Positions 1,641-21,295 of a DNA stretch of 33,848 bases are shown piece by piece. Source of the DNA: a virus (lineage: Duplodnaviria; Heunggongvirae; Uroviricota; Caudoviricetes); IMG/VR virus record IMGVR_UViG_2925877141_000002; one strand, written 5' to 3'. Under the pieces are notes generated by a model. It was not told the origin of the DNA and ran no database searches. It worked only from the letters and a program-made list of their open reading frames with translations. Position numbers and translations under genes: made by a program. Positions within the stretch are counted from its first letter, which is position 1; each line of letters opens with the position of its first letter.

Positions 1641-3919
1641 TTAAGAATCAGTCTGACTCGGGATCAGTTTTTGCCAGATAGCTGAAACGTATTTTGCCTG
1701 GTAACGGGCGTCATCAAGTGCATTATGGCGCTCACCTTCGAATGGAATAGCCGTTCTGGCATCGAAGTCTATGGCTTTCCCCAGCTCAACGATTGTGCGT
1801 ACATCGCGATCGTTGTAGTAACGCCACGGGCAGGGGATCCCCTGCCGTTCGTATGAACGGCGCAAAATCGTGTTGTCGAAGTTGGCTCCATTTCCCCAGA
1901 CATGAACAAAAAATTCACCGGAGTTTTCGTCGATAAATTCCCGCAATTGTAACAGTGCATCATCTAACGGGATTTCATCGGTCATAATGGCAGATTGCGC
2001 TTCGCGTGATTGCTTAAGCCACCATTTAATGGTGTCCCGATCAATGACTCCGCCAGCAGTTTCCAGATCGATAGTCTTACTAAATTCCGGTCCCATATCT
2101 CCGGTTTGCGGATCGAAAAATATTGCACCTATTGAGATGATCGGGGCATCAGGATTTTTTCCCATGGTTTCAAGGTCGATCATTAGATGGTCACACGTCC
2201 TGCTGGTGGATGTGATTTCGTGATGACCGTTCACCTTAATTGGGTGATCTGCCGTCTCGCCAGTTTCATTATCGCTATTGTGATGCTGATTGCCGCCAGT
2301 GTTCTCCTTGTGTGGATGTTCAGCGCCTTCCATTTCCTCCGGATCATCTTCCTGAACTTCAACCTGATACTCTTCATCGAATGTTTCTTGGTATGTTGCG
2401 TCGCCCATCACCGCGCCACAATCAGGGCAGTTGCCGCCGCCGGTCTGACCGCAGGCGGTGCAGGCTTTTTCCACTTCCTGTTGCGCCACTGGTTCAGGCT
2501 GTTTCGTTTCTGGCTCGTTTTGTAACGCATTTGGACTGTTTTGTTCCGCTTTTTGGTAGTTCCGTTCCGATTCATGCTGGTTCTGGTTCACAGAATCGCG
2601 GGTCTGGATCCCCTTAACCCATTTCGGATCATTCGGGTCACTAATCCCTTCAACAAATTCACCACGTGATGCAGCAAGCAACTTATCGGCGTCAGGCTGG
2701 CTGATATTGGCTGCCTGCATAATTTTGTTTACTTCGTCAGCGGTAACTTTTATCGGCTCTGGTTGTTCTGAATCTTCAGCGGTATCTACATTTTGCGGTA
2801 AGCCCGTGTATGTGCCATTTTTTCGGGCAAAATATTCTTCTTTTGTGATTTCAGTGGCGCCAGCAGCCAGTGCCTTATCCAGACCAGAAAGTTTGTTTGC
2901 GCGACCGTATTTTTCTCCGTCCTTATCTGCGAAGAGGAAATAGAACGGCCCCTCACGCTCTACAGATGGTTCAGCTTCCGGCGCGGTTTCATTTTTTGGG
3001 ATATCAGATACCTCAGTTTCCACTGCATCAGTTTGTGTTTCTGATGACTGGAGAACAGCAACAGTGCCCAGGTCTGTTTCTTCATTCTCAAACACGCCCT
3101 TTGTCGTCAGGTATTCGCAGATATATTTGTTCAGTGCTACGGGATCTTTGTGAATGTCGATCGGACGCTCACGGACAAGGCCAAAAATAGTTTGGCGGTC
3201 GTAGCGAAGGGCATCAGGCTGTTTGCGTATTGATGCCGAGATACGCTTCCAGTCTTCGCGGTCGTTGTCGATAACTTCTTTTTTTGCCCAGCGATGGATG
3301 CTGCCGTCAATGTTTCCGGCATCCACATCACCAGGCCAGAGAGCGTAGGCCAGTTCGTCATCCAGTGTTTTCCATGTCTGCTTGTATTCGCGATGAATGG
3401 CAGCAATGACCGAGCTCTTTTTTCCTGTTGAATTTTCAGTGTACTGTTGATTGGCTCTGGCGCGGGCGAGATCAACAACAGACGTGTATTTTCCGGTTTC
3501 CTTGCGTTCACCTTCGCGACGTTTTTTCCAGATGCGCATCTCTGCCTGAATTTCGGGCCATTTAGCACCAGGAATACATTTATGCTTAACCCACCCAATG
3601 GCGTGCAACTTAAGCTCCGGATACATGGCGTTAACTTCTGGCATTTTCATCAACGCTTCAACGATATGTCCGTCGAATGTTGCCATGTCTTCCTGCAACA
3701 ATTCCTGTGCGCTAATAACCATATCAACGGTGATGTTTTCACATGTGTCGAACTTAACCATGACAGCGTTCTGTACTTCAGGGGCCAGCTTGTCAAAAGT
3801 GACGTTCATCGGATCGGATTCAGTCTCAACCGGGACAAAAGAAGCAGACTCCTCATCCCAGCGGTTTTCCTGCATATATTCAGCATCCCATGAATCGAGG
3901 GCAGGGCGGGGTATGCCAG
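1641..3919 (-). pseudogene. Prophage exonuclease, C-terminal 758 codons (gene split by IS2); DnaQ-like DEDDh 3'-5' exonuclease domain at C-terminus
   Basis: ORF 1641..3947 runs into the IS2 left inverted repeat, so its first 11 codons are IS/TSD-derived. C-terminal motifs IDLETMG, VWGNGANFD, HNALDDA match DEDDh exonucleases. Confidence 0.75.
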
Positions 3920-4010
3920 TAGACTGGCCCCCTGAATCTCCAGACAACCAATATCACTTAAATAAGTGATAGTCTTAATACTAGTTTTTAGACTAGTCAT
4001 TGGAGAACAG

Positions 4011-4442
4011 ATGATTGATGTCTTAGGGCCGGAGAAACGCAGACGGCGTACCACACAGGAAAAGATCGCAATTGTTCAGCAGAGCTTTGAACCGGGGATG
4101 ACGGTCTCCCTCGTTGCCCGGCAACATGGTGTAGCAGCCAGCCAGTTATTTCTCTGGCGTAAGCAATACCAGGAAGGAAGTCTTACTGCTGTCGCCGCCG
4201 GAGAACAGGTTGTTCCTGCCTCTGAACTTGCTGCCGCCATGAAGCAGATTAAAGAACTCCAGCGCCTGCTCGGCAAGAAAACGATGGAAAATGAACTCCT
4301 CAAAGAAGCCGTTGAATATGGACGGGCAAAAAAGTGGATAGCGCACGCGCCCTTATTGCCCGGGATGGGGAGTAAGCTTAGTCAGCCGTTGTCTCCGGGT
4401 GTCGCGTGCGCAGTTGCACGTCATTCTCAGACGAACCGATGA
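4011..4442 (+). CDS. insC: IS2 OrfA (InsC) variant with altered, extended C-terminus
   Basis: Starts [14 protein letters not shown] with GGAGAACAG RBS; ends ...PGMGSKLSQ... instead of canonical ...PGDGE because of the 1-bp deletion. Confidence 0.8.
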
Positions 4443-5238
4443 CTGGATGGATGGCCGCCGCAGTCGTCACACTGATGATACGGATGTGCTTCTCCGTATA
4501 CACCATGTTATCGGAGAGCTGCCCACGTATGGTTATCGTCGGGTATGGGCGCTGCTTCGCAGACAGGCAGAACTTGATGGTATGCCTGCGATCAATGCCA
4601 AACGTGTTTACCGGATCATGCGCCAGAATGCGCTGTTGCTTGAGCGAAAACCTGCTGTACCGCCATCGAAACGGGCACATACAGGCAGAGTGGCCGTGAA
4701 AGAAAGCAATCAGCGATGGTGCTCTGACGGGTTCGAGTTCTGCTGTGATAACGGAGAGAGACTGCGTGTCACGTTCGCGCTGGACTGCTGTGATCGTGAG
4801 GCACTGCACTGGGCGGTCACTACCGGCGGCTTCAACAGTGAAACAGTACAGGACGTCATGCTGGGAGCGGTGGAACGCCGCTTCGGCAACGATCTTCCGT
4901 CGTCTCCAGTGGAGTGGCTGACGGATAATGGTTCATGCTACCGGGCTAATGAAACACGCCAGTTCGCCCGGATGTTGGGACTTGAACCGAAGAACACGGC
5001 GGTGCGGAGTCCGGAGAGTAACGGAATAGCAGAGAGCTTCGTGAAAACGATAAAGCGTGACTACATCAGTATCATGCCCAAACCAGACGGGTTAACGGCA
5101 GCAAAGAACCTTGCAGAGGCGTTCGAGCATTATAACGAATGGCATCCGCATAGTGCGCTGGGTTATCGCTCGCCACGGGAATATCTGCGGCAGCGGGCTT
5201 GTAATGGGTTAAGTGATAACAGATGTCTGGAAATATAG
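4399..5238 (+). CDS. insD: IS2 OrfB (InsD) transposase body, DDE domain; no longer reachable by -1 frameshift from OrfA
   Basis: 279-aa ORF identical to the distal InsD of copy B; the frame entered by -1 slippage at the A6G site (4328-4334) hits TAA at about 4371. Confidence 0.75.
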
Positions 5239-5249
5239 GGGCAAATCCA

Positions 5250-6086: not shown

Positions 6087-6144
6087 AAAAACGGCGGCAG
6101 AGCAGTCACGGAGTAAAACTGATACCGCCAAACGTCACCAGAAA
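6087..6144 (-). ncRNA. dicF: DicF small RNA with 3' stem-loop and U tract
   Basis: Reverse complement of 6092..6144 reads UUUCUGGUGACGUUUGGCGGUAUCAGUUUUACUCCGUGACUGCUCUGCCGCCG followed by UUUUU; matches DicF as recalled; sits between ydfC-like and dicB. Confidence 0.8.
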
Positions 6145-11455: not shown

Positions 11456-11712
11456 ATACAGCGAACTCCATTGGTTTAGTTGGATATTTACTGTGCTGGA
11501 CAAAACGGTTTGCGGGGAAATCTTAGTTAAGTAGAATGACTGCGGGTGCTTGAGGCTATCTGCCTCGGGCACGAACACCAACGGCAGGTAGAGAAAAGCC
11601 CCAGTTAACATTACGCGTCCTGCAAGACGCTTAACATTAATCTGAGGCCAATTTCATGCTAGACACATGTAGGTTAGCCTCTTACGTGCCGAAAGGCAAG
11701 GAGAAGCAGGCT

Positions 11713-11868
11713 ATGAAGCAGCAAAAGGCGATGTTAATCGCCCTGATCGTCATCTGTTTAACCGTCATAGTGACGGCACTGGTAACGAGGAAAGACCTCT
11801 GCGAGGTACGAATCCGAACCGGCCAGACGGAGGTCGCTGTCTTCACAGCTTACGAACCTGAGGAGTAA
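11713..11868 (+). CDS. hokD: Hok-family type I toxin (HokD/RelF-like)
   Basis: 51 aa MKQQKAMLIALIVICLTVIVTALVTRKDLCEVRIRTGQTEVAVFTAYEPEE; AAGGAGAAG RBS; same frame is open upstream to 11656; terminator downstream. Confidence 0.85.
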   Translation: MKQQKAMLIALIVICLTVIVTALVTRKDLCEVRIRTGQTEVAVFTAYEPEE

Positions 11869-12682: not shown

Positions 12683-13732
12683 GTGCGGGTATTACTTCGA
12701 CCTGTTCTGGTACCGGAACTCGGGCTGGTGGTCGTTAAGCCGGGCCGTGAATCCATGCCGGTATTCCACAATACCCGGGTACTGGTGGAGCCGGAACCGA
12801 AAAGCATGCGTAATCTGCCGTCCGGGGTCGTTCCTGCCGTTCGCCAGCCGCTGGTGGAAGACAAAACATTGCTGCCGTTTTTCAGTAACGCACGGGTAAT
12901 TCGTGCTGCTGGTGGTGCTGGTGCATTGTCTGACTGGCTGTTGCGCCATATTAAATCCTGCCAGTGGCCACACGGCGATTATCATCACAGCGAAACCGTT
13001 ATTCACCGTTATGGTACCGGCGCAATGGTGTTGTGCTGGCACTGCGACAACCAGCTGCGTGACCAGACATCCGAATCACTCGAGCAACTTGCTCATCAAA
13101 ACCTGTCAGCATGGATGATTGACGTCATCGGTCACGCAATAAGCGGTACGCAGGAGCGTGAATTATCTCTGGCTGAATTATCCTGGTGGGCGGTCCGCAA
13201 TCAGGTGGCGGACGCGCTACCGGAAGTGGTATTACGTCGCTCGCTGGGATTACCAGCGGAAAAAAACTGCTCGGTGTACCGCGAAAGCGACATCGTACCG
13301 GGAGAGCAGACCGCCACCAGCATATTGAAACAGCGCACAAAAAATCTTGCACCGTTGCCTCACGCCCACCAGCAACAAAACCCATCACAGGAAAAGACGG
13401 TGGTAAGCATCACCGTTGATCCAGAGTCTCCGGAATCTTTCATGAAGCTGCCTAAACGTCACCGTTGGGTTAAGGAGAAATACACACGCTGGGTTAAGAC
13501 ACAGCCGTGTGCTTGCTGCGGTATGCCAGCCGACGATCCGCATCATCTGATTGGTCACGGGCAGGGCGGAATGGGAACCAAAGCACATGATCTCTTTGTG
13601 TTGCCTTTGTGCAGAAAGCATCACGACGAGTTGCATACGGATACCGTGGCATTTGAAGAGAAGTATGGCTCCCAACTGGAGCTGATTTTTCGATTTATCG
13701 ATCGCGCGCTGGCAATTGGTGTGCTGGCCTAA
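12683..13732 (+). CDS. ydfU: DUF968 protein (YdfU-like) with C-terminal HNH-like Cys/His cluster, in the NinG/Rap position
   Basis: 349 aa; C-terminus [43 protein letters not shown]; directly upstream of Q. Confidence 0.7.
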
Positions 13733-13749
13733 TTTTGTGGAGTAAGTTG

Positions 13750-14127
13750 ATGCGTGATATTCAGATGGTTCTTGAGCGTTGGGGGGCATGGGCGGCTAAT
13801 AATCATGAAGATGTGACCTGGTCGTCCATTGCCGCCGGTTTTAAGGGATTAATTCCTTCAAAAGTAAGATCTCGTCCGCAATGCTGTGACGATGACGCGA
13901 TGATCATTTGTGAATGTATGGCTCGCCTGAAAAAAAACAACAGCGATTTACATGATTTATTGGTGGACTATTATGTCGGCGGCATGACTTTTATGGCGCT
14001 TGCACGTAAGCATGGGCGATCTGATTGTTGGGTTGGCAGGATGCTCCAGAAAGCTGAGGGCGTAGTGGAGGGCATGCTGATGGTGTTGGATCTCCGATTG
14101 GAGATGGATGCTGATTGTTCGAAATAA
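13750..14127 (+). CDS. Late-gene antiterminator Q (QuuD-like family)
   Basis: [76 protein letters not shown]...; resembles DLP12 QuuD as recalled. Confidence 0.8.
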
Positions 14128-14139
14128 TTAAAGGAAAAG

Positions 14140-14168
14140 TTGCTGTCTGATTTTCATTAGTCTAACAT
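14140..14168 (+). promoter_or_regulatory. Candidate late promoter PR' (TTGCTG-17-TAACAT) just downstream of Q
   Basis: Sigma70-like hexamers with 17-bp spacing, about 60-85 bp upstream of tR'-like terminator. Confidence 0.3.
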
Positions 14169-14226
14169 TTTAAATGTTGGAATCGCAACGTAGTTATTAT
14201 CATATAACAGCTTGTTTCCTGATTTA

Positions 14227-14254
14227 GCCAGCCTCCCCAAAGGCTGGTTTTTTT
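14227..14254 (+). terminator. Intrinsic terminator (tR'-like) downstream of Q
   Basis: GCCAGCC-TCCCCAAA-GGCTGG stem followed by TTTTTTT. Confidence 0.7.
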
Positions 14255-14282
14255 CTAATAAGTATCATTTCGGGTGGGGATT

Positions 14283-14807
14283 TTATTGTTTAACCCATAA
14301 TAGTTCATTGACATTGAATCCCAACTTTTGAGCGGTACGCACATAGTCTGCTTTTACATTATCTGGAATAGTTTGGGTCCTTGCCAGAATCCATAGGTAT
14401 TCTCTGTTCGGACCACTGACAAGAGCATACTTATACTCATCATCCAGCTTGATTACATTATAGCCACCATAGAAGGGGCCAAAAAACGAAACTTTCAACG
14501 CTGCAGTTTTAGTATCTCCAGTAAAGTATGCTTTACCTTCGCTCTCGCTCCATTTGTTTTTCGTTGGATCGTATCCACGGTTAAGTACGCGAATCCCTCC
14601 GTCGTTCCGTTTTTCATAAGTAGCGCTGACCTGTTCCAGACCACGTTCGAACCAGTTCTCGAGGCGAGCTATTTCATACCATTTTCCGAGGTAGCGGTTG
14701 GCGTCAAAATTTGTAATCGGCTGCACACCTTTAGGTGGTGTCGGGGCCTTACATGCTATAAGAGTGAAAGAGAGTGCAATGCCAGTCAACACAGGCCATA
14801 ACTTCAT
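14283..14807 (-). CDS. Outer-membrane lipocalin lipoprotein (Blc-like); prophage cargo
   Basis: 174 aa with lipoprotein signal (...LIAC), lipocalin motifs GKWYEIAR, FFGPFYGGYNVI; resembles chromosomal Blc as recalled. Confidence 0.85.
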   Translation of the reverse strand: MKLWPVLTGIALSFTLIACKAPTPPKGVQPITNFDANRYLGKWYEIARLENWFERGLEQVSATYEKRNDGGIRVLNRGYDPTKNKWSESEGKAYFTGDTKTAALKVSFFGPFYGGYNVIKLDDEYKYALVSGPNREYLWILARTQTIPDNVKADYVRTAQKLGFNVNELLWVKQ

Positions 14808-14999
14808 AATAAATCCTGTACTTTTGATAGTTGAGAGTAAGTATGAAAGATAGATGAGTACGACCGATCACTTAAAGAACTTTCCTACTATATTAGGAAT
14901 AGTCAATAACAGAAAAATTGTCAGTGATGAAGCCAGAAAGGCAATTTAGTCCGTGCACTACAAAGTTTATGTGTTAATGAATTAGTCAAGGGGGAGGAA

Positions 15000-15959
15000 A
15001 TGATAAAAAAACCTGTGATTGGGATCAGCGGTTGTTTGGGCGGTTCTGCTGTTCGTTTTGATGGTGGTCACAAAAGAGATGACTTTTTAATGGACAAATT
15101 AGTGGAATGGGTAACATTCAGACCAGTATGTCCGGAAATGGCTATAGGGCTGCCAGTTCCGCGTCCTGCTCTACGACTTGTGCGCTCGAAGCAAGGAAAT
15201 ATACGGATGTGTTTCAGCCACGACCAGAATGAGGATGTGACAGAGAGAATGACAGAGTTTAGTCGTTCTTATATGGACAAATTAAAGGATGTATCGGGGT
15301 TTGTGGTTTGTGCTAAATCTCCCAGCTGTGGCATGGAGCGCGTGCGTGTCTATGATGAAAATGGTAATCGAGGTCGTAAAGATGGAGTGGGACTATTTAC
15401 GAGCACTTTGATGGAAAAGTTTTCCTGGCTACCGGTTGAAGAGGATGGGCGATTACATGATCCAGTGCTTCGTGAGAATTTTATTGAAAGAGTTTTTGCT
15501 TTGCATGAGCTCAATCACCTTTACAAGGAGAAATTATCAAGAAGAGAGTTATTAGCTTTTCATAGTCGTTATAAGCTTCAGTTGTTGGCGCATAGCCAGG
15601 CAGGCTATAAAGATATGGGACCATTTGTGGCTGCAATACACGAGTGGGCGGACCTTGAATCATACTTTGAGGTGTATCGTGATAATCTGATGGCGATTCT
15701 CAGAAAACCAGCATCACGTAAAAATCACACGAATGTGCTGATGCATATACAGGGGTATTTTAGTAATTACTTAAGTACACGCCAGCGTAAAGAGTTGAGC
15801 GAGGTTATACTTAACTATCGCTTTGGCACATTGCCTCTTCTTGCGCCGTTGACTCTGCTGAAGCATTATCTGGGTGAGTATCCTAATGATTACTTGCTTA
15901 CACAGAATTACTTCGATCCCTATCCGGAAGAACTGGCTCTAAGACTGATGGTGAATTAA
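15000..15959 (+). CDS. DUF523-DUF1722 fusion protein (TudS-like Cys-rich N-domain plus YbgA-like C-domain)
   Basis: 319 aa; N-terminus [12 protein letters not shown]...; strong GGGGGAGG RBS. Confidence 0.65.
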
Positions 15960-16166
15960 CTGTATGCGATATCATCTGAAAGTGATGAGTTCCTGTATGC
16001 AGGATATTTACAATCGTAAAAACTACGCTATGATGCTCATAGTGTCAGTTTTTATAAAAATCCTGTTCACGCTAATAGACTGGCCCCCTGAATCTCCAGA
16101 CAACCAATATCACTTAAATAAGTGATAGTCTTAATACTAGTTTTTAGACTAGTCATTGGAGAACAG

Positions 16167-16532
16167 ATGATTGATGTCTTAGGGCCGGAGAAACGCAGAC
16201 GGCGTACCACACAGGAAAAGATCGCAATTGTTCAGCAGAGCTTTGAACCGGGGATGACGGTCTCCCTCGTTGCCCGGCAACATGGTGTAGCAGCCAGCCA
16301 GTTATTTCTCTGGCGTAAGCAATACCAGGAAGGAAGTCTTACTGCTGTCGCCGCCGGAGAACAGGTTGTTCCTGCCTCTGAACTTGCTGCCGCCATGAAG
16401 CAGATTAAAGAACTCCAGCGCCTGCTCGGCAAGAAAACGATGGAAAATGAACTCCTCAAAGAAGCCGTTGAATATGGACGGGCAAAAAAGTGGATAGCGC
16501 ACGCGCCCTTATTGCCCGGGGATGGGGAGTAA
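16167..16532 (+). CDS. insC: IS2 OrfA (InsC)
   Basis: 121 aa [56 protein letters not shown]... Confidence 0.85.
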
Positions 16533-17395
16533 GCTTAGTCAGCCGTTGTCTCCGGGTGTCGCGTGCGCAGTTGCACGTCATTCTCAGACGAACCGATGAC
16601 TGGATGGATGGCCGCCGCAGTCGTCACACTGATGATACGGATGTGCTTCTCCGTATACACCATGTTATCGGAGAGCTGCCCACGTATGGTTATCGTCGGG
16701 TATGGGCGCTGCTTCGCAGACAGGCAGAACTTGATGGTATGCCTGCGATCAATGCCAAACGTGTTTACCGGATCATGCGCCAGAATGCGCTGTTGCTTGA
16801 GCGAAAACCTGCTGTACCGCCATCGAAACGGGCACATACAGGCAGAGTGGCCGTGAAAGAAAGCAATCAGCGATGGTGCTCTGACGGGTTCGAGTTCTGC
16901 TGTGATAACGGAGAGAGACTGCGTGTCACGTTCGCGCTGGACTGCTGTGATCGTGAGGCACTGCACTGGGCGGTCACTACCGGCGGCTTCAACAGTGAAA
17001 CAGTACAGGACGTCATGCTGGGAGCGGTGGAACGCCGCTTCGGCAACGATCTTCCGTCGTCTCCAGTGGAGTGGCTGACGGATAATGGTTCATGCTACCG
17101 GGCTAATGAAACACGCCAGTTCGCCCGGATGTTGGGACTTGAACCGAAGAACACGGCGGTGCGGAGTCCGGAGAGTAACGGAATAGCAGAGAGCTTCGTG
17201 AAAACGATAAAGCGTGACTACATCAGTATCATGCCCAAACCAGACGGGTTAACGGCAGCAAAGAACCTTGCAGAGGCGTTCGAGCATTATAACGAATGGC
17301 ATCCGCATAGTGCGCTGGGTTATCGCTCGCCACGGGAATATCTGCGGCAGCGGGCTTGTAATGGGTTAAGTGATAACAGATGTCTGGAAATATAG
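16490..17395 (+). CDS. insD: IS2 OrfB (InsD), normally expressed as OrfAB by -1 frameshift
   Basis: 301 aa starting [22 protein letters not shown] (GTG immediately after A6G). Confidence 0.85.
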
Positions 17396-17701
17396 GGGCA
17401 AATCCAGCTAAAGAAAACATTGAGATGCAATTTAATGTTGGTAAACATACCAGCCCCAAACGATTTTATTCAATCTGTTTTTATATGAAGATATTTCAAG
17501 TGAATATTGAGAGTATATAATATTATTATTGCACGCAGCTATTATAATATAACAGATTAGTTTAATGATTTGTTTTTTGTGAGTTAAACACATGGTTTTA
17601 TAGTTGTGATGCAATGAGATTTTCCTTATTGTTGAACTGGCGAATATTGATTTTCCACCTATACTTACCTGGTGTAACCCCAATGATATCAGGTGGATAA
17701 T

Positions 17702-18415
17702 ATGCCATACATATGTTCTATCATTTTGGTGTTGAACTCGTTTGGTGTCCGAATTGGTAAAGAAGATATTTTGTTTAAAAAAGGAAATGCTGTCCTCATT
17801 GAATACAATTTAAAAGATCTTTTTTCGTCAAATACAGATCATCTAATGATCGTAGATGTTGAGGAGAAAACAGTTAATGATTTCTTTAAAAACTACACAC
17901 TCTCACCTTTTTCTGTAAGAAGGTTTTATCCGTCATACTTGATAGTAGAATGTGAAGATTTTTCATTGTTAAAGAACTTGGTTGCATGCTTGAATTGTGA
18001 TAGCAAAACCGTGGATGTAGTTAGAAATCAAATATCACTTGCATGTCTTGCTGTCTTATCTTCAGAGAAAATAGTGCAAAGTTTTTTGTTCGGAAGTCTT
18101 AATAGCTTAGGTTGTAAAGTTAAGGCTATTATTCACTCGGATATCTCAGCGTCATGGAGACTTTGTGATATATCTTCAAGATTATATATGAGCGAGAGTT
18201 TGTTAAAAAGAAAATTAAAAGACGAAGGATTATCGTTTAGTAAATTAATTCTTGAAGAACGAATGATGATGGCGCAAAGATTATTGATCTACAGTAACCA
18301 TACTGTCGGCAAGGTGGCGGGAATATGCGGGTATGACAATGCATCATATTTTGTAAGTGTTTTTAGAGGATATTTTGGTGTGCCTCCGCACCAATATTTA
18401 TCAAGATTTTCTTAG
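17702..18415 (+). CDS. AraC/XylS-family transcriptional regulator, A+T-rich gene
   Basis: C-terminal dual-HTH signature (...SLLKRKLKDEGLSFSKLILEERMMMAQRLL...ICGYDNASYFVSVFRGYFGVPPHQY); AGGTGG RBS; very A+T-rich gene and upstream region. Confidence 0.8.
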   Translation: MPYICSIILVLNSFGVRIGKEDILFKKGNAVLIEYNLKDLFSSNTDHLMIVDVEEKTVNDFFKNYTLSPFSVRRFYPSYLIVECEDFSLLKNLVACLNCDSKTVDVVRNQISLACLAVLSSEKIVQSFLFGSLNSLGCKVKAIIHSDISASWRLCDISSRLYMSESLLKRKLKDEGLSFSKLILEERMMMAQRLLIYSNHTVGKVAGICGYDNASYFVSVFRGYFGVPPHQYLSRFS

Positions 18416-18605
18416 AAGATATGATGTGATGGCATTTTATAAAGTTATTTTTTGAAGTGTAAGATTATACGATATTTTTAGCTACGCCAGAATAATTGCT
18501 GGCGTTTTTCTTTTTGAATAGATGTTCGGGCCTTACGCTAATGTAACTTCTTTCCTTCTTCGAACCAAACCGTGTACACCATCCGTTATCTGCGGAGGTG
18601 AGGCT

Positions 18606-18821
18606 ATGAAATCCATGGATAAGTTAACAACGGGCATCGCCTACAGCACCTCTGCAGGCAGTGCTGGCTACTGGTTTTTACAGTTGCTCGATAAAGTCAC
18701 ACCCTCACAGTGGGCGGCAATAGGTGTATTGGGTAGTCTGGTATTTGGCATGCTGACGTATCTGACAAACCTTTATTTCAAGATTAAAGAAGACAGGCGT
18801 AAGGCTGCGAGAGGAGAGTAA
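18606..18821 (+). CDS. Class II holin / pinholin (phage 21 S21-like) with dual-start motif
   Basis: [71 protein letters not shown]; two in-frame ATGs (18606, 18615); GGAGGTGAGG RBS. Confidence 0.85.
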
Positions 18822-18825
18822 GACA

Positions 18826-19044
18826 ATGACTAAAAACTATGAACTGATTGTGAAAGGGACCCGCAATTTTGAGAATAAAGTTACGGTAATCTTAACGTTA
18901 CAGGACAAAGAACGTTTTGCCGGTGAAATTTTTGATCTGAACATCAACCTTGAGCGACTTGAAGGAGCTGGTTTGGATTATTATGAAGTTACTGCGGTAA
19001 AACATGCCAAACAGTTCTTGAGAGATTTGGCTGAAAAAATATAA
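18826..19044 (+). CDS. Hypothetical protein inserted between holin and endolysin
   Basis: 72 aa, AGGAGAG RBS, starts 5 nt after the holin stop. Confidence 0.45.
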   Translation: MTKNYELIVKGTRNFENKVTVILTLQDKERFAGEIFDLNINLERLEGAGLDYYEVTAVKHAKQFLRDLAEKI

Positions 19045-20520: not shown

Positions 20521-20883
20521 ATTAATATTAAATCGGATTATTTTTAGCGCTGAATGTGAAATTTAAATAAAAAGGACTCTTCCATGAGTCAAAATCCTTG
20601 AAATCTTAAGGGTAAGATAAAAGGTCATTAGACAGAATGACACGTTTTATTAATAAATAAAGCTATTGTTTCATTCGTGTGTTTTTCTTTACAAAAGTAA
20701 TCCTTGCTATGGTTGGTTAATCATGCGTTAATGGTGTTCTGGTTTGTTACAAAATTATCTGAAGCAGTCATTGTTATAATTTTATTATTTGTACCTCTTG
20801 AGATTTCCTTGTTGGTTTTTCTCTCTGATATTTTTTTTCGGACCATTCTGCCCAAGGGCTAACTTCTTCAAAAGGTAATAATG

Positions 20884-21096
20884 ATGTCTAACAAAATGAC
20901 TGGTTTAGTGAAATGGTTTAACCCTGAAAAAGGTTTTGGTTTCATCACGCCGAAAGATGGTAGCAAAGATGTGTTTGTCCATTTCTCAGCTATTCAGAGC
21001 AACGATTTCAAAACGTTAACTGAGAATCAGGAAGTCGAATTTGGTATTGAGAACGGACCTAAAGGCCCCGCGGCTGTTCATGTTGTGGCACTTTGA
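20884..21096 (+). CDS. cspI: CspA-family cold-shock protein (CspI/CspB-like)
   Basis: 70 aa [38 protein letters not shown]...; long A+T-rich leader 20521-20880. Confidence 0.9.
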
Positions 21097-21295
21097 GGTA
21101 GAAAATATTACAAACCATATTCACTTTAGATGCCCGTGTTGCCATGGTTCTCAGTATAGAACATCATCTTTTGATGTTTCTGACAGGAATCCTTTCGGGG
21201 CAAAATGTATCTTTTGTAAATCAATGATGATTACATTTGATAATATTTCACAATACTTAAATGTTAGCCGTCTGTCGTTAGATTTAAGAAAGTGA
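21080..21295 (+). CDS. Small zinc-ribbon protein (CPCCH...CxxC)
   Basis: About 71 aa; only available start overlaps the csp 3' end; terminator follows. Confidence 0.4.

Follow-up and report, generated by a model that had tools for sequence, protein, structure and literature searches.

The RudS family was named by Jamontas et al. (2024, NAR, PMC11417400) for enzymes that desulfurate 4-thiouridine (s4U) in tRNA via a [4Fe-4S] cluster held by three cysteine residues, and that bind the tRNA with their DUF1722 domain. One of the six enzymes tested, RudS_vir, is encoded by phage 1H12 and lowered the s4U content of tRNA when expressed in Escherichia coli. When RudS_KT of Pseudomonas putida was expressed in the same host, tRNA s4U fell and the growth delay induced by UVA was lessened; under near-UV light, s4U at position 8 (s4U8) crosslinks to C13, which leads to growth delay and the accumulation of ppGpp (PMC11417400). 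The phage context of the gene, its partner blc and its expression are not discussed in that paper, and neither lipocalin nor Blc is mentioned in it (PMC11417400). Here, we describe a rudS gene paired with a divergently oriented gene for a Blc-like lipocalin in IMG/VR record IMGVR_UViG_2925877141_000002; the whole stretch of 33,848 nucleotides (nt) that was analysed is referred to as the window. The pair lies between the genes for the antiterminator Q and the holin of a lambdoid prophage, and we consider it probable that it is a two-gene stress cassette which was captured long ago from an enterobacterial chromosome and is now carried as cargo, i.e., as morons. The phage genomes, blc as a moron (2020), and the RudS family together with the activity of a phage enzyme (2024) were already public. 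New in this analysis are the origin of the two genes as a captured pair, the loss of a regulator, the promoter footprints and moron-type terminator, and a figure for prevalence.

The initial annotation had taken the interval between Q and holin for the cargo slot of lambdoid phages, and the comparison with related phages agrees. Directly after a related Q gene, DLP12 and mEp332 carry the porin gene nmpC (lc) on the minus strand, which, like blc, encodes an outer-membrane protein, and 933W carries stx and tRNA genes in the same slot. The cargo of the window also lies between Q and holin and is swapped for other cargo in related phages. Its genes are different, however, from those found in the nmpC and stx slots: one encodes a cytoplasmic RNA-modification eraser and another a regulator.

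Layout of the Locus

The window is an E. coli lambdoid prophage, collinear at 97-100% identity with the prophage adjoining rspAB in strain S1-INA-02-B, in which hokD, rem and ydfU (DUF968) are followed by the Q gene. The two cargo genes and the borders of the slot are as follows (aa, amino acids):

13750-14127, plus strand: Q antiterminator gene (Q82/QuuD family), 125 aa (Pfam PF06530, 8e-51)
14283-14807, minus strand: blc-like gene for an outer-membrane lipocalin lipoprotein, 174 aa (Pfam Lipocalin_2, 7.5e-43)
15000-15959, plus strand: rudS, encoding a TudS(DUF523)-DUF1722 fusion, 319 aa (Pfam PF04463 and PF08349)
18606-18821, plus strand: holin gene (EssD / P21 S type), the first lysis gene and the end of the cargo slot (Pfam PF04971, 6.1e-34)

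The interval 14128-16075 starts directly past the stop codon of Q, ends directly before a copy of IS2, and contains the minus-strand blc-like open reading frame (ORF) of 174 aa and the plus-strand fusion ORF of 319 aa. The full slot up to the holin gene additionally contains this IS2 copy (16076-17406) and a gene for an AraC/YdeO-like regulator (17702-18415). When the whole window was scanned for tRNA genes and for Rfam matches at gathering thresholds, nothing was found inside 14128-16075.

The Fusion Protein Is a Predicted RudS Enzyme

The plus-strand ORF had been described as a fusion of a TudS-like (DUF523) and a YbgA-like (DUF1722) domain. Its position is as described and both domains were found by the domain search: PF04463 (2-thiour_desulf, DUF523/TudS) covers residues 7-149 (5.8e-40), and PF08349 (DUF1722) covers residues 192-309 (9.4e-40). 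The description was nevertheless incomplete, as the protein can be assigned to the characterized RudS family, of which the 1H12 orthologue has been tested. It is 92% identical to RudS_vir (1H12 gp66, YP_009909557.1) across all 319 residues and 100% identical to WP_000592549.1. Cys12, Cys44 and Cys110 are present at the positions listed for RudS_vir and RudS_ST, and the CPE and SPSCG motifs can be aligned with those of TudS 6Z92. Residues were mapped by the numbering offset to RudS_KT and the alignment with TudS; by this mapping, Glu46, Arg55, Ser107 and Ser109 are equivalent to E51, R60, S111 and S113 of RudS_KT, and all seven catalytic and cluster residues are kept. Judged by these features, the 319-aa fusion is predicted to be RudS, a [4Fe-4S] tRNA 4-thiouridine desulfidase.

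RudS_vir has the same length and the same cysteine positions as the RudS of the window, and its gene occupies the same slot, with the order Q, blc on the minus strand, rudS, AraC-like gene and holin. The 26 substitutions between the two proteins affect none of the catalytic or cluster residues, and the gene in the window differs in being followed by IS2. Between the window and 1H12, the ratio of non-synonymous to synonymous substitution rates (dN/dS) is 0.14 for rudS, in which the DUF1722 domain is intact, and 0.09 for blc; these values argue that both genes are maintained by selection. Salmonella ORF319, also known as RudS_ST (STM1389), shares, by its published description, the 319-aa architecture and the cysteine positions. 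A search of the PDB sequences with the RudS of the window gave a distant TudS (E = 8e-4) as the sole match, and no solved RudS.

Comparison with ybgA, as suggested in the initial annotation, gave 49% identity to K-12 YbgA, in the C-terminal half of the fusion only. E. coli YbgA (b0707), which is encoded upstream of the photolyase gene phr, is, unlike RudS, a stand-alone DUF1722 protein without a TudS domain. Such a stand-alone YbgA had no effect on tRNA s4U (PMC11417400). An identity as YbgA equivalog was rejected for the fusion: its score of 189.1 bits is below the cut-off of 237, and the match is confined to residues 161-315 of 319, single-domain YbgA being ~169 aa long.

The Lipocalin Belongs to a Second Blc Lineage

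The minus-strand ORF lies where it had been described, and its assignment to the Blc-like lipocalins is backed by the matches in Pfam and NCBIfam. With the NCBIfam model for outer membrane lipoprotein Blc (NF007786), it scores 312.6 bits against a cut-off of 267, and the match covers residues 1-174, i.e., the full length; the Blc chains 3MBT, 1QWD and 2ACO in the PDB match at 1e-65 to 1e-67. The N-terminus as read from the translation, MKLWPVLTGIALSFTLIAC/KAP, with the lipobox LIAC, Cys19 and a lysine at position +2, fits an outer-membrane lipoprotein and contains no apparent inner-membrane retention signal. E. coli Blc binds lysophospholipid or fatty acid.

The protein is 96% identical to gp65 of 1H12 and 77-80% identical to the rudS-linked Blc proteins of Enterobacter and Leclercia. 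Comparison with the chromosomal blc of the host, another check that had been suggested, gave 59% identity to K-12 Blc, and identity to the Blc of CMY plasmids (Citrobacter, ampC-linked) is 60%. Orthology to the ampC/sugE-linked chromosomal blc was rejected on these figures. The E. coli chromosomal Blc (b4149, adjoining ampC) and the Blc of CMY plasmids share family, length, lipoprotein signal and fold with the phage protein, but they belong to another lineage. Phage Blc thus represents a Blc lineage paralogous to them, and rudS is the ancestral partner of this lineage. The phrase "second lipocalin" in the initial annotation is apt in relation to the chromosomal blc of the host, but not within the window, in which tblastn found no lipocalin besides the one at 14283-14807.

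A cut-down blc gene, consisting of the first 110 codons and with a product 80% identical to phage Blc, hence of the rudS-linked lineage, is present on several E. coli plasmids. The same 110-codon blc was found in contigs of Pseudocitrobacter and Kluyvera (L040, L041 at 4216-4545), and the cut-down gene may be a leftover of a mobilized chromosomal segment.

Chromosomal Origin of the Pair

One genome per bacterial species was scanned for rudS. This survey yielded 62 chromosomal loci in other Enterobacterales (Citrobacter, Enterobacter, Leclercia, Lelliottia, Kluyvera, Klebsiella, Pectobacterium, Dickeya and their relatives), with products that are 66-76% identical to the RudS of the window. A Q or holin gene was found near rudS at none of the 62 loci. 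At 40 of them, a divergent blc homologue is located upstream within 1.6 kb, which suggests that the adjacency of blc and rudS is older than the phage. In Citrobacter sedlakii (L015) and Citrobacter sp. JGM124, the two genes are immediate neighbours and point away from each other, which is also their arrangement in the phage. In Enterobacter cloacae (L030, 4021-6960) and at 34 similar loci, the order is blc on the minus strand, a gene for a MerR-type regulator of the MlrA/BluR family, a transthyretin-like gene, and rudS on the plus strand. The regulator of E. cloacae is 40% identical to MlrA and 36% to BluR, and the latter is annotated as a repressor antagonized by the blue-light sensor BluF.

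In Salmonella as well as in Enterobacter, Citrobacter, Leclercia and relatives, the chromosomal rudS is found next to or after a gene for a MerR-type regulator of the MlrA/BluR family, joined in Enterobacter by the transthyretin-like gene. The phage copy is without either of these, and it is richer in AT: the GC content of phage blc and rudS is 43-44%, vs. a median of 58-59% in the chromosomal relatives. The two genes would thus be one captured chromosomal pair, which has come without its MlrA/BluR-type regulator. Both cargo genes reported between Q and the lysis genes are indeed present, but, on this evidence, they are not independent of each other. The low GC content points to an old capture or to an unsampled donor. 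Among the chromosomal species representatives, no donor was identified; the best of them show at most 76% identity for RudS and at most 80% for Blc, and all have a GC content of at least 47%.

Two further observations concern the chromosomal loci. A CCCG..CGGG palindrome is found upstream of chromosomal blc, variable between species and absent from the phage copy; it could be the operator of the MlrA/BluR-family regulator. Directly downstream of rudS in C. sedlakii (L015, 7101-7994), there is a gene for a pseudouridine synthase with an S4 domain, which may be a coincidence.

Distribution in Phages and in E. coli

The 1.95-kb segment is present at 91-97% identity in twelve cultured phage genomes, i.e., IdasGreatGrand and lambda-like phages of Mathieu et al., including 1H12, and in all twelve the gene order is Q, blc on the minus strand, rudS, AraC-like gene, holin, endolysin and spanin. 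Within a panel of 19 lambda-type phages, blc was reported as a moron in more than 50% (Mathieu et al., 2020, PMC6969025). In IMG/VR, 80 contigs encode this RudS; the AraC-like gene follows rudS in 71 of them, with the order Q, blc, rudS, araC and holin and only blc on the minus strand, and the remaining nine mostly contain part of this gene set. Among the viral contigs, the gaps are invariant (161-163 nt between Q and blc, 192-198 nt between blc and rudS), and the cargo block is tightly linked to a single Q allele at 97-100% identity.

Segment 14128-16075 was found in 1152 of 5426 complete E. coli genomes, 1047 of which match at least 80% of it in one place, and the copies are almost all chromosomal. 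In E. coli B ATCC 11303 (L155, 3373-5593), Q, blc and rudS are present and rudS is split by IS3, and strain B-RalR matches the first half of the segment only. Near other E. coli copies, IS903B, IS1 or IS2 is found. E. coli was stated to be without RudS homologues in the RudS paper, for which the host was BL21(DE3), a B derivative (PMC11417400), and likewise in a 2026 review. This statement holds for K-12, but not for approximately 20% of the complete genomes (1152/5426).

Two short contigs of metagenome-assembled genomes labelled "Candidatus Nanosynbacter sp." (L061, L066) also carry Q, blc, rudS, the AraC-like gene and holin at 85-98% protein identity; they are almost certainly contamination of the metagenome bins.

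Control Region of blc and rudS and the rudS Terminator

The region between the divergent start codons and the end of the rudS transcription unit contain the following elements:

14808-14999, either strand: divergent blc/rudS control region with three elements (upstream-region alignment)
14837-14845, minus strand: (a) sigmaS-like -10 element CATACTTAC, for blc
14884-14897, both strands: (b) conserved block CCTAATATAGTAGG, with overlapping -10-like hexamers on both strands
14954-14965, plus strand: (c) TGCACTACAAAG, ~36 nt upstream of the rudS ATG (read from the sequence)
14993-14997, plus strand: Shine-Dalgarno sequence GGAGG of rudS (read from the sequence)
16016-16055, plus strand: hairpin terminator downstream of rudS (terminator scan)

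Footprints were sought by aligning the distinct sequences that precede blc in chromosomes and phages, 40 in all; positions conserved in at least 80% formed two blocks. Block 1, TGCACTACACTTAA, lies ~35 nt before the blc ATG and has element (a) as its counterpart in the window. The consensus of the sigmaS -10 element is KCTAYRCTTAA, and block 1 is presumably a textbook element of this type. Block 2, TCTCAATATACTACGAAT, which in Enterobacter is located just upstream of the regulator-rudS operon, has element (b) as its counterpart. The motif near rudS, element (c), is CTACACT in phage Lambda_2E9 but CTACACA in IdasGreatGrand. The promoter-like elements of blc and rudS thus appear to be conserved footprints and may be in use as promoters.

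The RNA of the hairpin at 16016-16055 folds at -17.6 kcal/mol (z = -5.8), and none of 200 shuffled sequences was as stable. This terminator is potentially bidirectional, because an A-tract precedes and a U-tract follows the stem. With promoter-like footprints and a terminator behind rudS, the pair would have the layout of autonomous morons.

The Late-Promoter Region Downstream of Q

The initial annotation had placed a candidate PR'/tR' pair upstream of the cargo. Three elements were considered:

14140-14168, plus strand: PR' candidate A, TTGCTG-17 nt-TAACAT (read from the sequence)
14195-14210, plus strand: AT-rich cluster of -10-like hexamers (TATTAT/TATCAT/TATAAC; 14195-14208) followed by ATAACAG, PR' candidate B or a sigma-dependent pause element (phage comparison)
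14226-14256, plus strand: tR'-like intrinsic terminator with a 9-bp GC-rich stem and a run of seven T residues (terminator scan)

The terminator half of the pair is strong. Its RNA folds at -14.9 kcal/mol (z = -3.9), with none of 200 shuffles as stable, and it is conserved in the aligned phage copies; on the minus strand, it has no U-tract and a z of only -0.2. It is a good candidate for tR'. The promoter half is only a weak match to the consensus. Candidate A agrees with the consensus at 8 of its 12 positions, which is less than the scan required; its -35 element is invariant in three aligned phage copies, it is without a counterpart in DLP12 or mEp332, and it would yield an RNA of ~80 nt. 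Candidate B includes TATCAT, the annotated -10 of pR' in 933W (TTTACG-16-TATCAT, followed by qut and a terminator); it has no good -35 at 16-18 nt, and the implied start is only ~16 nt before the terminator stem. In favour of B, ATATAACAG is the sole block 3' of Q, and ATAACAG the sole element, that is common to the window, DLP12 and mEp332, which have related Q genes; the parts shared with DLP12 in this alignment are TAATTAA, a TTG.T motif and ATATAACAG only. A consensus promoter scan of 13600-18900 gave 13 matches where 11 were expected, none of them in the intergenic regions between Q and blc or between blc and rudS.

The Q protein is 86% identical to QuuD of K-12 DLP12 and identical to WP_001204787.1 from a near-identical prophage (L003), whose counterpart of the holin is named "phage lysis protein EssD" in RefSeq. 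As in Q82-type late units, a Q protein of family PF06530 is encoded and an intrinsic terminator follows soon after the candidate promoter region. The Q gene shares 75-77% nt identity with the Q genes of many Stx1 and Stx2 phages, including 933W, over its first 340 nt only, and in distant blastn matches to phages the resemblance to other Q genes breaks off at nt 340-360, some 20-40 nt short of the Q stop codon, so that the sequence beyond is particular to this module. Because it ends there, the comparison with DLP12, mEp332 and 933W gave no decision between candidates A (14140-14168) and B (14195-14210). Since the last part of the Q gene is outside the stretch shared with the Stx phages, the C-terminus of Q and the PR' region would appear to move with the cargo block as a single mosaic unit.

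Proposed Function and Alternatives

If blc and rudS are an anciently captured stress cassette, which we consider probable as stated above, the two genes would be expressed in different ways. The blc gene is antisense to late transcription and would be expressed from its own sigmaS-like promoter; Blc would be an envelope protein of lysogenic conversion, made most likely from this stationary-phase or stress promoter. In RudS, the TudS domain would convert s4U at tRNA position 8 to uridine, while the DUF1722 domain holds the tRNA. Erasure of s4U8 would remove the near-UV photosensor that crosslinks to C13 and would thus shorten the UVA-induced growth arrest. A lysogen expressing RudS should then recover faster from UVA, and an induced phage might keep translation running. 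Since rudS has inherited promoter-like elements and its own terminator, it would probably be transcribed at a low level in the lysogen, as a gene for lysogenic conversion; RudS would, we infer, be active at this native level and benefit the lysogen.

Q-modified RNA polymerase is resistant to terminators. After induction, such a polymerase starting from PR' would read through tR', run antisense across blc, pass through rudS and continue to the lysis genes, as may be deduced from the position of rudS and from established Q antitermination. The initial annotation had put the fusion gene under Q-dependent late transcription, a conclusion that would follow from position only; rudS is probably an autonomous cargo unit that is also read through by Q-modified polymerase.

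Several points weigh against this proposal. None of the promoter-like elements reached the threshold of the consensus scan. The cognate MlrA/BluR-type regulator, which lies between blc and rudS in Enterobacter, is missing from the phage, and the gap in GC content described above means that no donor can be named. On tRNA, RudS_vir was weaker than other RudS enzymes although it was well expressed at the protein level; its lag on free 4-thiouracil was the shortest, and the activity of RudS is known under overexpression only (PMC11417400). Finally, one IS2 copy lies 20 nt downstream of the rudS terminator and another interrupts the early region, so the prophage may be decaying.

An alternative is that rudS is mainly a late-phase auxiliary gene of the phage, driven from PR' by Q after UV or SOS induction, whose product would de-thiolate host tRNA and thereby keep near-UV crosslinking and the stringent response from stalling late protein synthesis, with negligible expression in the lysogen. 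Every copy of the gene points in the same direction as the late operon and is located between Q/tR' and holin, and the block is bound to one Q allele. The stx genes of 933W, which occupy the same slot, are expressed in a Q-dependent manner. In addition, RudS relieves the UVA growth delay (PMC11417400). We nevertheless regard this alternative as unlikely: the strong terminator of rudS and the inherited promoter-like footprints are typical of autonomous morons, the partner blc, being antisense to late transcription, is excluded as a late gene, and the pair is equally conserved in non-phage chromosomes. Besides, the time between late transcription and lysis is short for an enzyme that has to turn over the tRNA pool.

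A more far-reaching proposal would be that blc-rudS is a coupled photo-oxidative stress cassette, with the lipocalin dealing with damaged envelope lipids and RudS with s4U8, governed in chromosomes by the MlrA/BluR-type regulator. Lambdoid phages would have captured the cassette, discarded the regulator and placed the genes behind Q, so that induction by sunlight or UV is coupled to s4U8 erasure and translation is kept running for the late proteins; approximately one fifth of E. coli strains, but not K-12, would then have a near-UV phenotype. A common stress theme of the two genes, drawn from their conserved pairing and the light-related family of the ancestral regulator, is speculative, and the full proposal seems to us quite unlikely.

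Blc might instead have an envelope function for the phage that is independent of RudS, such as a role in superinfection exclusion or the masking of receptors, as for the lipoproteins Cor and Llp, or in serum resistance, as for Bor; the adjacency to rudS would then be meaningless. Genes for outer-membrane proteins on the minus strand recur in and around the slot, nmpC of DLP12 and mEp332 being one case and bor, which follows the lysis genes, another, and membrane-protein morons predominate according to Mathieu et al. (PMC6969025). We hold this to be very unlikely, since blc is divergent to rudS at the 40 non-phage loci, i.e., the adjacency seems to predate the phage, and the protein scores as a full-length member of the Blc subfamily. 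Moreover, we know of no exclusion phenotype for any Blc.

It is highly improbable that free thiolated bases or nucleotides, and not tRNA, are the main substrates of RudS, which would then salvage or detoxify 4-thiouracil or s4UMP in the manner of TudS. The catalytic domain of RudS is a TudS domain, and the short lag on 4-thiouracil and the weaker effect on tRNA of RudS_vir would fit. However, none of the RudS enzymes matched TudS in supporting growth on thiouracil, whereas all of them, RudS_vir included, lowered tRNA s4U, which stand-alone TudS did not (PMC11417400), and in the window the tRNA-binding DUF1722 domain is intact and under purifying selection. That the genes are neutral hitch-hikers without a function in E. 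coli is scarcely credible: although copies are often struck by insertion sequences (IS3 within rudS of E. coli B; IS903B, IS1 and IS2 nearby elsewhere) and the phage lacks the cognate regulator, dN/dS amounts to 0.09-0.14 between phage lineages, 1047 complete genomes retain most of the segment in one place, all catalytic residues are kept, and the orthologue is active in E. coli.

Insertion Sequences and Other Features

The remainder of the slot contains:

16076-17406, plus strand: IS2 (insC/insD), flanked by a 5-bp target duplication GCTAA at 16071-16075 and 17407-17411 (inverted-repeat ends and duplication read directly; transposase domains)
17702-18415, plus strand: gene for an AraC/YdeO-like regulator, with 33.5% GC, which completes the cargo block as its third member (Pfam HTH_18 and HTH_AraC)
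18484-18513, plus strand: terminator-like hairpin with a T-run, located 3' of the AraC-like gene and 5' of the holin gene (terminator scan; fold -11.3 kcal/mol, z = -2.4)

The IS2 copy at 16076 is strain-specific, the site being empty in L003 and in the phage genomes. A second IS2, at ~3910-5249, breaks the early (exonuclease) region relative to L003, which itself carries IS2 at a third site, after cspI/ynfQ. These copies suggest recent IS2 activity.

The best NCBIfam match of the AraC-like protein is YdeO, with 112 bits far below the cut-off of 348. It is 77% identical to gp67 of 1H12 and more divergent than blc and rudS (77-100% identity). The GC content of its gene, 33.5%, points to an origin separate from that of blc and rudS.

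Elsewhere in the window, three Rfam matches scored above the gathering score: the small RNA DicF (6092-6143, minus strand), the sok antitoxin RNA of the hokD locus (11544-11718, plus strand), and a cspA-type thermoregulator in a 5' untranslated region (20726-21142, plus strand, cspI region).

Significance

Current concepts are unchanged by the finding of blc-rudS. The gap that it exposes in annotation is a practical one: the enzyme of the window is named "YbgA family protein" in RefSeq, which undersells RudS, and PHROGs 2809, 3275 and 1450, the last of which includes the AraC-like protein, are labelled "unknown function", so that databases trail the demonstrated activity of a phage orthologue. 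The conserved neighbourhood of blc and rudS offers a first functional hint for the second Blc lineage. Natural lysogens constitute a ready system in which a tRNA-modification eraser may be studied at native expression, and in which it may be asked whether the host, the phage, or both benefit from it.

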